NCBI GenBank assembly: GCA_965243025.1
Contig: CBDETY010000003.1
Span: forward strand, 3,904,001 to 3,968,000
Source of the DNA: Candidatus Latescibacterota bacterium
GTDB taxonomy: Bacteria; Latescibacterota; UBA2968; UBA8231
Length of the DNA: 64,000 nt
Direction of reading: 5' to 3'
Shown here: positions 55,858 through 60,369 of the stretch, piece after piece
How the letters are laid out: the number at the start of each line of letters is the position of its first letter
How positions within the stretch are numbered: the first letter of the stretch is position 1
Notes under the pieces: generated by a model
Told to the model about the DNA's origin: nothing
What the model saw: only the letters and a program-made list of their open reading frames with translations
The model's database searches: none
Program-made: the position numbers and the translations under genes

Positions 55858-57618
55858 TTACTCCCGGATCCCTATGTGGAGTTCCCGCAACTGCTCAGGC
55901 GAGACCTCGCCCGGTGCGCCCATGAGCGGATCCTGCGCATTCTGGTTCATCGGGAAGGCGATGACCTCCCGGATGTTCGGTTCGTCCGCCAGCAGCATGA
56001 CGATGCGGTCGATGCCGGGGGCGATGCCGCCGTGGGGCGGAGCGCCGTAACGAAAGGCGCGGATCATTCCCCCGAACCTGCGATCCACTTCCCGCCGCGC
56101 ATGTCCGGCAATCTCGAACGCCTTGTACATGATGTCCGGCCTGTGGTTGCGGATGGCACCGCTCGACAGTTCGAGGCCGTTGCAGACGATGTCGTACTGA
56201 TACGCCTTGACCTCCAGCGGCGGTTGCGTCTCCAGCGCAGCCATGCCGCCCTGCGGCATGGAGAACGGGTTGTGCGAAAAGGCCACGCAAGCGCGTTCCT
56301 CGTCCCATTCGTACATGGGAAAATCGACGACCCAGCAGAATTCATAACAACCCTCCCGCCGCAGGTCGAGCCGGTCTGCCAGATGCAGGCGCAACCGTCC
56401 CGCCAGGGCCGCTGCCTCGGATGGCGCGCCGGCGATGAAGAAAACGGCTGACCCCGGAGCGGCTGCGCAGTGCTCGAAAATGCGGCTGCGCACGCTCTGT
56501 TCCAGGGCGGCGGCAAATGATCCTGTGGCCTGCGCTCCGTTGATTAGGTAGGCCAGCCCCTTGCCGCCCGCCTCTTTGACGAATGCTTCGAGGCCGTCGA
56601 AAAACGAGCGCGGCTGCCCTTCCATCTCAGGAACGCACAGGGCGCGGACGACCCCGCCTGCTGCGACGATGTCCCCGAACAGCCTGAACGAGGAGTCCGC
56701 GAAGATCCCGGTGAGGTCCTGGATTTCGAGACCGAAGCGCAGGTCTGGTTTGTCCGTGCCGAACCGCAGCATGGCGTCGGCATGGGAAAGACGCGGGAAC
56801 GGCGGCGCGGTCACTGCCCAATCGGTGAACTCGCGGAAGAGACCGGAAAAGAGTTCCTCGACCACGGCGAAGACGTCCTCCTGTTCGACGAAGGCCATCT
56901 CGAGATCGAGCTGGTAGAATTCGCCGGGGGAGCGGTCGGCGCGGGCGTCTTCGTCGCGGAAGCAGGGCGCGATCTGGAAGTAGCGGTCGAAGCCGGACAC
57001 CATCAGCAACTGCTTGAACTGCTGCGGCGCCTGCGGCAGCGCGTAGAAGCGGCCGGGATACAGCCGGCTCGGCACGAGGTAATCGCGCGCGCCCTCGGGC
57101 GAACTGCTGGTGAGAATGGGCGTCTGGAACTCGGCAAAGCCCATCTCCGTCATGCGCCGCCTGATGCTGGCGATCACTTCCGAGCGGAGCTGAATGCGGC
57201 GGTGCAGCCCTGCCCGGCGCAGGTCCAGGAAGCGATAGGACAAGCGGGTGCTCTCCCCCACTTCGGGATCTTCGGCCACGGAAAAGGGGAGCGGCTCCGC
57301 CGGCGAGAGCACTTCCAGCTCGCGAACGGCGATTTCCACTTCTCCCGTCTCCATCGCGCTGTTGACGGTCTCAAACGACCGTTCGCGCACGTCGCCTGCG
57401 ACGCTGATTACGGATTCGCGGGGGACCTTTGACGCGATTGCCGCAGCGTCATTGTCCGGCAAGATCACGAGCTGGGTGATACCGTAGTGGTCGCGCAGAT
57501 CCAGGAACAGTATGCCTCCGTGGTCCCTTTTGCGATGCAGCCAACCGCTCAGGCGAACGGTCTGGCCGGCGTGGCGCTTGCGAAGTTCGCCGCAGGTGTG
57601 GGTGCGATAGCGGTGCAT
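55858..57618 (-). CDS. aspS: Aspartate--tRNA ligase, probably non-discriminating (Asp/Asn)
   Basis: [45 protein letters not shown]; RBS GGAGG. Confidence 0.97.
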
Positions 57619-57646
57619 GGCCACCTCCAGTTTTTGGATGTACATG

Positions 57647-57679
57647 AAAAACCGCCGTCGGCGCGAGGCTCAACGGCGG
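57647..57679 (-). terminator. Attenuator terminator 2 upstream of aspS
   Basis: mRNA CCGCCGUUG-agccucgcgc-CGACGGCGG-UUUUU (9-bp stem plus U-tract). Confidence 0.85.
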
Positions 57680-57702
57680 GTTGGGGTGAGAGTGTAATCC
57701 GA

Positions 57703-57795
57703 TCACGGCCAACGCCATCGAGCCCGAATGGCGGGATTATTGTCGTCGTTGTCATGCGAAATAGCGCGTGCCGTGTGCTTGTAGCGAAATGTCAT
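57703..57795 (-). CDS. Leader peptide 2 (30 aa, MTFRYKHTARAISHDNDDNNPAIRARWRWP)
   Basis: SD UAAGGAG; six consecutive Asp/Asn codons; 3' end overlaps the antiterminator arm. Confidence 0.85.
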   Translation of the reverse strand: MTFRYKHTARAISHDNDDNNPAIRARWRWP

Positions 57796-57809
57796 CTCGT
57801 AAACTCCTT

Positions 57810-57850
57810 AAAACAGAAAACCCGCCGCGATGCGTGTTCGCGACGGGTTT
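57810..57850 (-). terminator. Attenuator terminator 1
   Basis: mRNA AAACCCGUCGCGA-acacgca-UCGCGGCGGGUUUUCUGUUUU (13-bp stem, U-tract). Confidence 0.85.
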
Positions 57851-57879
57851 GGGATTCTCGGATTCGGTTGGAGCAGTCG

Positions 57880-57966
57880 TCAGAACACGCGTAATGGGGC
57901 GATCGGATTATTGACGCCGGCGTTGGCTGGATAATTCTGCCTGCGGTCTTTCTGACGGGCCATCAT
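57880..57966 (-). CDS. Leader peptide 1 (28 aa, MMARQKDRRQNYPANAGVNNPIAPLRVF), near-leaderless
   Basis: ATG 8 nt after the -10 box; four Asn codons ending in NNP; stop codon lies within the antiterminator arm. Confidence 0.72.
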   Translation of the reverse strand: MMARQKDRRQNYPANAGVNNPIAPLRVF

Positions 57967-57974
57967 GCTCTTGC

Positions 57975-58003
57975 AACGTATGAGGAGGGCCGCACTCCGT
58001 CAA
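57975..58003 (-). promoter_or_regulatory. Sigma70-type promoter of the aspS leader
   Basis: TTGACG-17 bp-TACGTT on the minus strand, just after the soxR stop. Confidence 0.7.
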
Positions 58004-58014
58004 ACCCGCTTCCT

Positions 58015-58485
58015 TCAACCGCCGGATGCGCCCACTTTCCCGGAACCTCCCATCAGGGAACTGCCGTCGACGCGGGATGCCATCTCGTCATCCCGGTTGA
58101 AGAGCGAGCACGACCGCAGGGACAGGCAGCCGCAGCCTATGCATCCCGTGAGGTTCTCTTTCAACCGCTCGAGCGTCTCAATCCGCTCTTCCAGCTGATC
58201 CCTCCAGCCCCTCGACAGGCGTGCCCAGTCCGCCTTGTTCGGTGTGCGCCCGTCCGGAAGCGTGTCCAGCGCTGACCGGATTTCCCGGAGCGGCACTCCG
58301 ATTCTCTGGGCGGCCCGAATGACGGCGACGCGGCGCAATACCGCCTGTCGATACCGGCGCTGGTTCCCGCCGGTCCGCTCCGAGGCGATCAGGCCCTCGG
58401 CTTCGTAAAACCGCAACGCAGAGGTCGCGACTCCGCTTCGCGCCGCTACGTCCCCGATGGTCAAAGTGGGTGAAAGTGGTGCCAC
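58015..58485 (-). CDS. soxR: Redox-sensitive transcriptional activator SoxR
   Basis: MerR HTH, GNQRRY and CIGCGCLSL..C [2Fe-2S] motif. Confidence 0.96.
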   Translation of the reverse strand: MAPLSPTLTIGDVAARSGVATSALRFYEAEGLIASERTGGNQRRYRQAVLRRVAVIRAAQRIGVPLREIRSALDTLPDGRTPNKADWARLSRGWRDQLEERIETLERLKENLTGCIGCGCLSLRSCSLFNRDDEMASRVDGSSLMGGSGKVGASGG

Positions 58486-58495
58486 AAGGTTTTCC

Positions 58496-58526
58496 TTGAC
58501 TTCAAGTATACTTGAAGTTGCAGATT
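58496..58526 (+). promoter_or_regulatory. SoxR-controlled promoter with SoxR box
   Basis: Perfect palindrome ACTTCAAGTA-TACTTGAAGT (58499-58518) between -35 TTGACT and -10 CAGATT, with the 19-bp MerR-type spacer. Confidence 0.92.
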
Positions 58527-58617
58527 CGATCCAGGCTCATCCGAAGAGCCTGCCTTACCGGCTTCGGTGACCTGGAACCAGGGAAGCGGATGCCGGAAAC
58601 ACCGAAAGGAGAAAACC

Positions 58618-60369
58618 ATGGGAAAACCGGCAAGGGAACGGCTGAACGCGGGATCGATCGATGAGATAAAACACAAGGGAAGAATCCTGGTTCGGGGAGG
58701 GCCTGTCCCGATCGTCCTCTTCTGCTCGGAGGGGGAATTTCACGCGGTCGACAACCGCTGTCCCCACATGGGGTTCCCCTTGCATCGCGGAACCATCGAG
58801 GACGGTATCCTGACCTGTCACTGGCACCACGCCCGTTTCGATCTGCGGAGCGGCTGCACCTTCGATCTCTTTGCCGACGACGCGGCGACATATCCGGTCG
58901 AAGTCGAGGACGGTCGCGTCTTCATCGATGTTTCCGCAAACACCCGCAATCCGGTGGAGCATGGTCTGCGGAGGCTCGAGGAAGGCATGGACCAGAACAT
59001 CAGGCTCGTGATCGCCAAAGCCGTTGTCGCCCTCCTGCACGCCGGGGCGAATGCCGACGACATTTCCCGGGCGAGCGGCCTGTACGGGGTACGGCGCCGG
59101 CGTTCGGGATGGGGGAACGGGTTGACGATCCTGACGGCGATGGCAAACGTGAGCGACCATCTCCGCGGTGACGAACGCATCGCCCCGCTTTATCAGGGGG
59201 CTGCGCAAATCGCATCCGACACGAGCGGTCAGCCGCCCAGGATTCCGCTGCGGCCGCTCGAAAGCCGGGAAATCCCGCGGGGCTCCCTGAGACGGTGGTT
59301 CCGCTACCTGGTCGAGGTGCGCAACGCGGACGGGGCCGAACGCACCCTGCTCACCGCCGTCGAGGGCCCTCTGAGCCAGGCCGATCTGGCGGAAATGATG
59401 GTGACTGCGGCGACCGACCACTTCTACCTCGACGGCGGCCACGTCGTCGACTTCATCAACAAGGCCTTCGAGCTGCTCGACCGCATCGGCTGGGAGTACG
59501 CGGCAGACGTCCTGCCCTCCTTGATCCCCCAACTCAGCAGGGCGCAGCGCAGCGAAGAACAGAACAGCTGGCGCTCTCCCGTCGACCTCGTGGCGCTCCT
59601 GAGCGAGGCGTTCGACTCGCTGGATCAGCTGCTGGAAGAAGGGCAGGGAGCAGAGTGGAAACGGGACGGTGAGTTCACGGAGAAGCTACTGCAGGACGAT
59701 CCCGGAACGATTGTAGCGGCCCTGAACGAAGCGCTGAAGCAGGGCGCGCGCCCGGTACAGCTGGCGGAGGCAGTAGCCCAGGCAGCGGCGCTCCGGGTAG
59801 CCCGGTTTCACGTGCAGAACGAGTTCTCGGACTGGATCTCGGTGCTGCACACCTTCTCGTACGCCAACGCGCTGCACCAGATGCTGAAAAGGGCGGAGTC
59901 GGCCGAAATGCTGCGCGGCGTCTACCATGGGGCCATGCGCGTCTACCTCGACCGCTTTCTCAATGTTCCGGCTGCGCGCCTGCCCGGCGGAAGCGCGAGG
60001 AGGGCGCCGGGCAATGAGCATCGCGAGGCAATGGAGGGATTCCTGCTTCTGCTCAACCAGCAGCAGAAGGTCGATGAAGCCGGGGAACTCGTTCACGGCT
60101 ACCTGGCATCGGGGGGTGAACCGGGGCTCCTGTTCCGCACGCTGGCGGAATCCCTGGTGAGGGAAGACGCCGAGTTCCACAGCTTCCAGATGCTCGAGGC
60201 GGCCATCCGCCAGCACGGAGAGCGCACCGATATCGAGGAGCAACGGATCCTGATGGTGGCAGCGGCCCGTTTTCTGGCGGCCAAGGCGCCGACTCAGCGG
60301 GAGCTGTTCCAGACACTTCGAATCGCCCGGCGGCTGCACCGCGGGGAGGCTGTCTACGAGGAGAGTTGA
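58618..60369 (+). CDS. Rieske [2Fe-2S] domain protein with long helical C-terminal region
   Basis: CPHMGFPL...CHWHHARFDL; RBS AAAGGAG before MGKP. Confidence 0.88.
   Translation: MGKPARERLNAGSIDEIKHKGRILVRGGPVPIVLFCSEGEFHAVDNRCPHMGFPLHRGTIEDGILTCHWHHARFDLRSGCTFDLFADDAATYPVEVEDGRVFIDVSANTRNPVEHGLRRLEEGMDQNIRLVIAKAVVALLHAGANADDISRASGLYGVRRRRSGWGNGLTILTAMANVSDHLRGDERIAPLYQGAAQIASDTSGQPPRIPLRPLESREIPRGSLRRWFRYLVEVRNADGAERTLLTAVEGPLSQADLAEMMVTAATDHFYLDGGHVVDFINKAFELLDRIGWEYAADVLPSLIPQLSRAQRSEEQNSWRSPVDLVALLSEAFDSLDQLLEEGQGAEWKRDGEFTEKLLQDDPGTIVAALNEALKQGARPVQLAEAVAQAAALRVARFHVQNEFSDWISVLHTFSYANALHQMLKRAESAEMLRGVYHGAMRVYLDRFLNVPAARLPGGSARRAPGNEHREAMEGFLLLLNQQQKVDEAGELVHGYLASGGEPGLLFRTLAESLVREDAEFHSFQMLEAAIRQHGERTDIEEQRILMVAAARFLAAKAPTQRELFQTLRIARRLHRGEAVYEES

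Follow-up and report, generated by a model that had tools for sequence, protein, structure and literature searches.

A probable asparagine-codon leader-peptide attenuator ahead of a second aspartyl-tRNA synthetase gene in a Latescibacterota bacterium

A stretch of 64,000 nucleotides from the genome of a Candidatus Latescibacterota bacterium (contig CBDETY010000003.1, positions 3,904,001 to 3,968,000, the whole stretch being called the window here) carries on its minus strand aspS2, a gene for an aspartyl-tRNA synthetase (AspRS), preceded by a leader of two units that each contain an upstream open reading frame (uORF) and a terminator. We consider it likely, at a probability of roughly 75%, that unit 1 of this leader attenuates transcription in the classical ribosome-mediated manner, by way of a leader peptide, and that it precedes a second such attenuator in series, both controlling aspS2; judging from its codons and predicted folds, it probably senses a shortage of asparaginyl-tRNA (Asn-tRNA) and turns aspS2 on. 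The features by which such attenuators are recognized fit: a conserved open reading frame (ORF), a run of regulatory codons, an intrinsic terminator, an antiterminator that excludes it, and the geometry of sensor and stop codons. Both units appear to have the full four-segment layout of trp-type attenuators. The features of unit 1 and its target gene are the following, given as positions in the window; all leader features lie on the minus strand, and a re-reading of that strand returned every coordinate and count given for unit 1 by an earlier note on the same DNA.

57998..58003 (-): -35 box TTGACG, read from the sequence
57975..57980 (-): -10 box TACGTT, read from the sequence; weak, with 3/6 consensus matches
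57880..57966 (-): uORF1, 28 codons and a stop, MMARQKDRRQNYPANAGVNNPIAPLRVF; conceptual translation; frame intact in 27/28 homologues
57950..57957 (-): region 1, CGUCAGAA, uORF1 codons 4-6; pairs with UUCUGACG of region 2 in minimum free energy folds
57936-57934 and 57924-57922 (-): the other Asn codons of uORF1, read from the sequence
57907..57912 (-): sensor codons Asn19-Asn20 (AAT AAT), followed by Pro, read from the sequence
57878..57890 (-): region 2, GCGUGUUCUGACG, 5' strand of the antiterminator; includes the stop UGA (57882-57880)
57832..57845 (-): region 3, CGUCGCGAACACGC, pairs with region 2; made up of the 5' arm and loop of terminator 1
57811..57850 (-): terminator 1, stem and U-run; 13-bp stem 57850-57818, loop of 7, -22.0 kcal/mol
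55858..57645 (-): aspS2, bacterial-type AspRS of 595 aa; Pfam tRNA-synt_2, OB and GAD domains

The most direct indication of a sensor is the codon content of uORF1. As the earlier note had counted, the peptide holds four Asn (positions 11, 15, 19 and 20) and one Asp (position 7), and at least four Asn in 28 codons are expected with P ~0.001-0.02 at Asn frequencies of 1.75-4%. The Asn codons are conserved in relatives, mostly as longer runs: NNN or NNNN occurs in 21/27 intact homologues, with a longest run of 2 codons in six copies, 3 in eight and 4 in thirteen, as in the typical peptide MMTRQNDRxQNNNNPLxPLRVF. Over these 27 copies, Asn accounts for 134 of 635 codons (21%) and Asp for 27. Of these 134 Asn codons, 83 are AAT, versus a share of ~20% genome-wide as estimated from a crude set of long ORFs, and in the leader alignments the identity of Asn and Asp residues is kept across synonymous AAT/AAC and GAT/GAC changes. 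A Pro codon directly follows the Asn run in 27/27 uORF1 copies and in 15/16 copies of the second uORF, uORF2 (57904-57906 and 57733-57735 here), and both frames read AAT AAT CC at the end of the run; this Pro may reinforce stalling, or may only reflect an origin of the two units by duplication.

The position of the run and the reading frame are equally constrained. The distance of 16 nt from the Asn run to region 2, which the earlier note had measured, is 16 nt in 27/27 homologues, although the N-terminal part of uORF1 varies in length. Gaps in the coding columns of uORF1 are all multiples of 3 (3, 6, 9, 21, 24, 27 and 30), versus gaps of 1, 2, 3, 5 and 8 nt, mostly not multiples of 3, in the spacer columns, and the frame from ATG to the conserved UGA is intact in every homologue except G031. 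In this genome (L031/L009), the conserved promoter and start of unit 1 are gone, and a TAG lies in frame three codons ahead of the usual stop; both unit 2 and aspS2 persist, with one TAG in the aspS2 match.

The arrangement around the start of uORF1 points to a short or missing 5' untranslated region. A spacer of 17 nt separates TTGACG (58003-57998) from TACGTT (57980-57975), and ATG ATG (57966-57961) begins 8 nt (57974-57967) beyond the -10 box, without a Shine-Dalgarno (SD) sequence at a usable distance, just as had been noted before. TTGACR is found at most 50 nt from the uORF1 start in 25/27 homologues, and the ATG comes 30 nt after the end of the -35 box in 17/27 of them and 31-33 nt after it in 5 more (31 nt here), which places the ATG 7-10 nt beyond the -10 boxes; in relatives these read TATCTT, TATTTT or TATACT. 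This constant promoter-to-ATG distance supports a leaderless or near-leaderless uORF1 mRNA with a predicted start site, and the earlier proposal of a probably leaderless uORF1 thereby gains from the comparison. In one relative (G084, L044), an insertion of ~50 nt separates the conserved -35 box from the -10 box, and its leader promoter may be disrupted or replaced.

At the RNA level, uORF1 and terminator 1 are linked by mutually exclusive pairings. Regions 2 and 3 form the antiterminator that the earlier note had described (8 + 5 pairs with one bulged C), and it is maintained in relatives: 96.8% of the cells of helix 2:3 are paired across 29 distinct sequences, versus 9-57% when the helix is slid, and two pairs show compensatory changes, a number reached by 5/500 shuffles. 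Terminator 1 is paired in 99.4% of cells (29 sequences, versus 22-64% when slid), and helix 1:2, of 8 bp, in 94.7% (27 sequences, versus 25-55% slid), the latter being absent in G019 and different in G010; as both are conserved without covariation, neither is supported nor refuted by it. Folding energies are -22.0 kcal/mol for the terminator, -17.7 for the antiterminator and -25.4 for the region 1:2 fold. When the best duplex between a whole uORF and the 5' arm of its terminator was compared with 300 dinucleotide shuffles, the duplex of unit 1 (-21.2 kcal/mol) was equalled by 4 of them.

Unit 2 repeats this organization with its own ribosome-binding site and a mixed codon run:

57809-57804 (-): SD sequence AAGGAG of uORF2, read from the sequence
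57703..57795 (-): uORF2, MTFRYKHTARAISHDNDDNNPAIRARWRWP and a stop; conceptual translation; read out in 15 genomes
57753-57736 (-): Asp/Asn run DNDDNN of uORF2, read from the sequence
57713..57725 (-): 5' strand of antiterminator 2, GGGCUCGAUGGCG; complementary to 57678-57666, part of the 5' arm of terminator 2
57647..57679 (-): terminator 2, stem and U-run; stem 57679-57652, -19.0 kcal/mol

The hairpin of antiterminator 2 reaches -30.2 kcal/mol, and its duplex was equalled by 0/300 shuffles. Helix 2:3 of this unit is paired in 98.1% of cells (16 sequences), versus 31-53% when slid, and its single compensatory pair, reached by 62/500 shuffles, is not significant. uORF2 is the sole small ORF in the 6.8-Mb genome to pass a filter for a run of at least 4 Asn/Asp codons (at least 2 of them Asn) followed by a terminator; uORF1 falls outside this filter because its run is only NN. 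No similar leader was seen before asnS, aspS1 or gatB of this genome, and the leader before aspS2 is unique in it. One-unit leaders also exist: 12 of the 28 leader-bearing genomes have one, and contigs of three public sequencing runs contain a related form that has 3 letters in place of 183 nt (unit 2, window 57620-57804) and is 8-20 times as deep as the exact sequence.

That the gene under control encodes a second, accessory AspRS was not known to the earlier note. The genome has two bacterial-type AspRS genes, and the product of the window copy (AspRS2; 603 bits with TIGR00459, 797 bits with NF001750) is 43% identical to the other, housekeeping enzyme (AspRS1). A housekeeping-type AspRS occurs in all but one of the 76 genomes of the family, versus full-length aspS2-type genes (63-92% identical) in 33/76 of them and in 0/56 from three sister families. 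Unit 1 was also turned into a covariance model, which finds 28 of the 76 family genomes at E < 1e-20, each time directly upstream of aspS2 or of a remnant of it, and gives weak matches in 8 further genomes, several to the terminator part only; two genomes of the same genus have neither aspS2 nor the leader. Between genera, AspRS2 proteins are 75-92% identical where the housekeeping AspRS reaches only 69-72%, the highest value (92%, versus 69-70% for the housekeeping enzyme) being found between this genome and another genus. This difference suggests that the cassette, composed of the promoter, the apparently leaderless uORF with its Asn codons, either one or two attenuators, and aspS2 (~2.1 kb), moved horizontally and recently, and the whole of it (window 55858-58003) looks recently transferred within the family. 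The nearest AspRS2 relatives outside the family are 56-62% identical and mostly alphaproteobacterial, with some from other phyla. Fragments or truncations of aspS2 are found in G019, G078, G016, G028, G006 and G014. In G019 (L024 1501-3100), an intact unit-1 leader, MNNNPTKTGDNNPPDLLRVF and a stop, stands ahead of a truncated aspS2, a 448-aa ORF that starts inside the catalytic core and has no OB domain for anticodon binding; this gene may have decayed, or may encode a core that stands alone in the manner of AsnA.

The more distant aspS2 genes of the family (63-70% identical) have leaders of unrelated sequence that are again Asn-rich. A separate Asn-rich leader followed by a terminator is present in G021, with two units (MTTNSQNRRNQNACDDNTVAAGFDVF and MRTTYFTSLIHDDNNPNTHVTRTRFRVP, each with a stop), in G022 (MQTLRNTLNNRLNADANRRRAGRSVF, stop) and in G092 (MTQIRANNNQDHNRTSTGGTAPAG, stop), and in G030, G025 and G014 an Asn-rich tract (e.g. 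VDNNRDNNNQGNNNHTS) extends the upstream gene in its own reading frame. In this one genus (G030 L132 1-675, G025 L133, G014 L137), the upstream protein carries a C-terminal extension of ~45 residues ending in VDNNRDNNNQGNNNHTSDGETAMAG and a stop, followed by a terminator and aspS2, and ribosomes completing the upstream gene may be the sensor. The upstream frame of G030 encodes a lysine-tRNA ligase (lysS), the match reaching the end of the profile at residue 179 of the protein; the frame ends of G025 and G014 read like that of G030 and are putative lysS ends. In G006 (L139), a small Asn-rich ORF, VKFLNNAENKNVYHLVNHH and a stop, without a recognizable terminator, precedes a split aspS2, and the end of the gene upstream of it resembles the lysS ends of the G030 genus. 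In the duplex test, shuffles as good as the real sequence numbered 0 and 5 of 300 for units 1 and 2 of G021, beside the 4 and 0 of G000, the genome of the window. The alternative pairing is demonstrable in these two lineages, and not in the G+C-rich leaders.

In the mechanism that we propose, transcription would begin at the first AUG or a few bases from it, so that uORF1 would be translated as a leaderless mRNA. With Asn-tRNA(Asn) ample, the ribosome would reach the UGA inside region 2 and cover this region, regions 3 and 4 would form terminator 1, and the transcript would end. With Asn-tRNA(Asn) short, the ribosome would stall at the Asn run, 16 nt short of region 2, which would stay free to pair with region 3; no terminator would then form, and the polymerase would continue. 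If no ribosome loaded, region 1 would hold region 2, making termination the default state. Read-through RNA would next reach unit 2, where uORF2, with its own SD and its DNDDNN run, would perform a second test, and aspS2 would be made only after both units had been passed: such a series gate would respond to Asn shortage at unit 1 and to Asn or Asp shortage at unit 2. As the second test uses Asn codons alongside Asp codons, full expression would need a shortage of Asn.

What would a cell gain from placing an AspRS under Asn codons? Such wiring is sensible only via the tRNA-dependent (transamidation) route to asparagine, in which Asp is first charged onto tRNA-Asn, and the gene content of the genome is largely in keeping with this route. 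GatB is present (gatB was searched), as the earlier note had expected for gatCAB, and so are GlnRS (660 bits) and a single tRNA-Asn(GUU) with U1-A72; AsnA was not found in this genome, nor was AsnB, the best AsnB-like protein reaching 108 bits (cut-off 267) and missing the N-terminal part of the model. From this combination, transamidation seems to be the sole source of asparagine, and tRNA-dependent synthesis looks like the only asparagine route of this genome. GatB is found in 74/76 family genomes. Such a gene combination is rare (18/547 genera), GatCAB and a non-discriminating AspRS (ND-AspRS) being the only asparagine route there, and tRNA-dependent Asn synthesis requires an ND-AspRS, GatCAB and a U1-A72 tRNA-Asn, according to the accessible text of PMC4206432. 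It is about an even bet that AspRS2 charges tRNA-Asn with Asp for GatCAB, which would make aspS2 an asparagine-biosynthesis gene under end-product control. Its likely purpose would then be to provide more Asp-tRNA(Asn) for GatCAB when free asparagine, and hence charging by asparaginyl-tRNA synthetase (AsnRS), fails, and the sensor of unit 1 may in that case report flux through the transamidation route, as had been suggested earlier.

Three observations count against this purpose. The expectation that the genome lacks asnS proved wrong: AsnRS is present (472 bits, above the cut-off), and the indirect route is therefore not the only way to Asn-tRNA. AsnB is above the cut-off in 8 of the 33 genomes with aspS2 (versus 28 of the 43 without it); its rarity where aspS2 is present is a trend, confounded by kinship and with exceptions both ways. 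The third concerns specificity. Two residues of the anticodon domain, a His and a Gly, are reportedly markers of non-discriminating AspRS (Bernard et al. 2006): AspRS2 keeps the His and carries Glu in place of the Gly, a state shared with most of its alphaproteobacterial relatives (among 82 aligned AspRS, namely both G000 paralogs and 80 relatives, mainly alphaproteobacterial, His is found in 80 and Glu in 49), and it is the housekeeping AspRS1 that has both markers. The fuller proposition, in which aspS2 is run as an asparagine-biosynthesis gene, its product performing the committed step and its cassette being self-contained, horizontally mobile and series-gated, is held tentatively, at a little less than an even chance.

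The attenuator itself also has evidence to contend with. A consensus promoter scan of 57400-58600 called no site, because the -10 box matches only 3/6 positions, and the public sequencing runs (one metatranscriptome with 5% of the words, and the three runs mentioned above with 70%) are represented by contigs devoid of starts, ends or strand, which are uninformative on transcription. Covariation is thin, with two pairs in helix 2:3 and none in helix 1:2 or in terminator 1, and several distant leaders fare poorly in the duplex test (98 shuffles of 300 as good for G022, 85 for G092, 48 for G030, 24 for G025 and 244 for G014). Recent spread of the cassette also implies that the 28 close homologues are not independent and that their conservation partly reflects shared descent; the structure statistics, coming from closely related sequences that transfer has spread, therefore lend modest support.

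The leader might instead be an RNA switch that needs no translation, whether a riboswitch, a tRNA sensor of the T-box kind or a leader bound by a protein, and the uORF would then be incidental. The 3' half of the leader is indeed conserved as RNA structure too, so that part of the peptide conservation (PLRVF and the stop) would be due to RNA alone. It is difficult to reconcile such a switch with indels that come in multiples of 3 in the uORF and not in the spacer, with an ATG-to-TGA frame kept in all but one homologue despite a variable N-terminal length, with Asn and Asp identities preserved through synonymous changes, or with the return of Asn-rich ORFs in the unrelated leaders of distant aspS2 genes. 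Searches of the leader region against Rfam at permissive thresholds gave chance matches only and no leader or T-box family, the best being the terminator against CrfA (20.1 bits for a gathering score of 38, a chance match), and we regard an RNA switch of this kind as very improbable. A more trivial explanation starts from the gene upstream:

58015..58485 (-): SoxR-like MerR-family gene (CIGCGCLS...C motif); Pfam MerR domains; a neighbour only

The earlier note had itself raised the alternative that terminator 1 merely ends the soxR transcript. The Asn-rich ORF would then be a chance occurrence. The soxR gene ends 48 nt before uORF1 with no terminator between them, so soxR read-through may also end at terminator 1. 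Yet this terminator goes with aspS2 and not with soxR: in relatives the leader follows genes other than soxR and is always ahead of aspS2, the soxR homologue of the same-genus genome G002 is followed by unrelated genes, with neither the leader nor aspS2 behind it, and the uniqueness and conservation statistics oppose chance. We give this explanation next to no credence. (A 600-aa ORF that diverges from the SoxR-like gene, 58567-60369 (+), has an N-terminal Rieske [2Fe-2S] domain and may be the target of this redox regulator.) A further explanation retains the switch and changes its purpose: AspRS2 would be a back-up or inhibitor-resistant enzyme, called upon when AspRS1 fails or is poisoned. 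An accessory gene of patchy occurrence that has spread horizontally and has frequently decayed, as aspS2 has, is what one expects of a function needed only under certain conditions, and AspRS1, with both of the markers, is apparently non-discriminating and would therefore feed the Asp-tRNA and Asn-tRNA pools alike; an auxiliary antibiotic-resistant TrpRS under ribosome-mediated attenuation, reportedly described by Vecchione and Sello in 2010, also speaks for it. A sensor of AspRS failure would, in contrast, be expected to use Asp codons first, and unit 1 is nearly Asn-only (134 Asn versus 27 Asp in the 27 uORFs); nor are there inhibitor biosynthesis or immunity genes beside aspS2 within the window. 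A back-up role is accordingly unlikely in our opinion, and a sensor of Asn-tRNA shortage remains our preferred interpretation of unit 1.

Classical leader-peptide attenuators include trpL, hisL, thrL, leuL and pheL of Escherichia coli, and pheM-pheST, whose target is a synthetase gene. The aspS2 leader probably works in the same way as the trpL/hisL/pheM type and has no sequence homology to it: it shares a short, presumably translated leader rich in codons for the sensed amino acid, four RNA segments with the predicted pairings 1:2, 2:3 (antiterminator) and 3:4 (terminator), a stop codon that would let the finishing ribosome mask segment 2, and a target gene in the supply line of the sensed amino acid. 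It differs from this type in that Asn is sensed and the circuit is cross-wired, Asn codons governing an Asp-tRNA synthetase, and in having an apparently leaderless uORF and two serial attenuators with different codon sets. To our knowledge, Asn is among the few amino acids for which no classical leader-peptide attenuator has been described. Searches of the open literature, with subscription journals largely outside their reach, and of Rfam showed no Asn-codon leader and no aspS attenuator among the matches listed, and the accessible part of a paper on aminoacyl-tRNA synthetase leaders and attenuation contains nothing on Asp or Asn; the aspS2 leader probably belongs to a known attenuator class for which we found no previous description with Asn codons before aspS in the literature searched.

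A functional parallel comes from Clostridium acetobutylicum, in which a T-box reportedly controls the tRNA-dependent synthesis of asparagine (Saad et al. 2012, 2013). As far as the accessible text goes, an extra AspRS (together with GatCAB there) is placed in that species under an antitermination switch that reads the charging of tRNA-Asn, and the tRNA-dependent route is relied on even though AsnRS is present. The two systems differ in their sensor, uncharged tRNA binding the leader RNA directly in the T-box and the translating ribosome being the proposed sensor here, and the aspS2 leader, from another phylum, shows no T-box motif or Rfam match. Another example comes from mycobacteria, where leaderless polycysteine short ORFs are Cys-responsive attenuators in the portion available to us of a preprint (bioRxiv 10.1101/834739): there too a leaderless 5' short ORF ties downstream genes to one amino acid by its codon content, the amino acid, organism and target being different and the terminator and antiterminator being explicit here. 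In Deinococcus and Thermus, a second, archaeal-type ND-AspRS exists beside AsnRS, GlnRS, GatCAB and another AspRS, without asparagine synthetase, and asparagine is made on tRNA-Asn, again from the accessible text of PMC4206432; the gene content is alike, and the difference is that the second AspRS here is bacterial-type, with a GAD domain.

The aspS2 leader appears to combine three uncommon features, namely a leaderless leader peptide, two serial attenuators with different codon sets and, in one genus, an upstream lysS frame that runs on into the sensor codons, and its cassette of ~2.1 kb, being self-contained, is suited to testing in a heterologous host. Why do some bacteria keep two AspRS genes? 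Why are both routes to Asn-tRNA retained? The leader offers a testable handle on each of these questions and, if our interpretation is true, it would be a ribosome-based counterpart of the clostridial Asn T-box.

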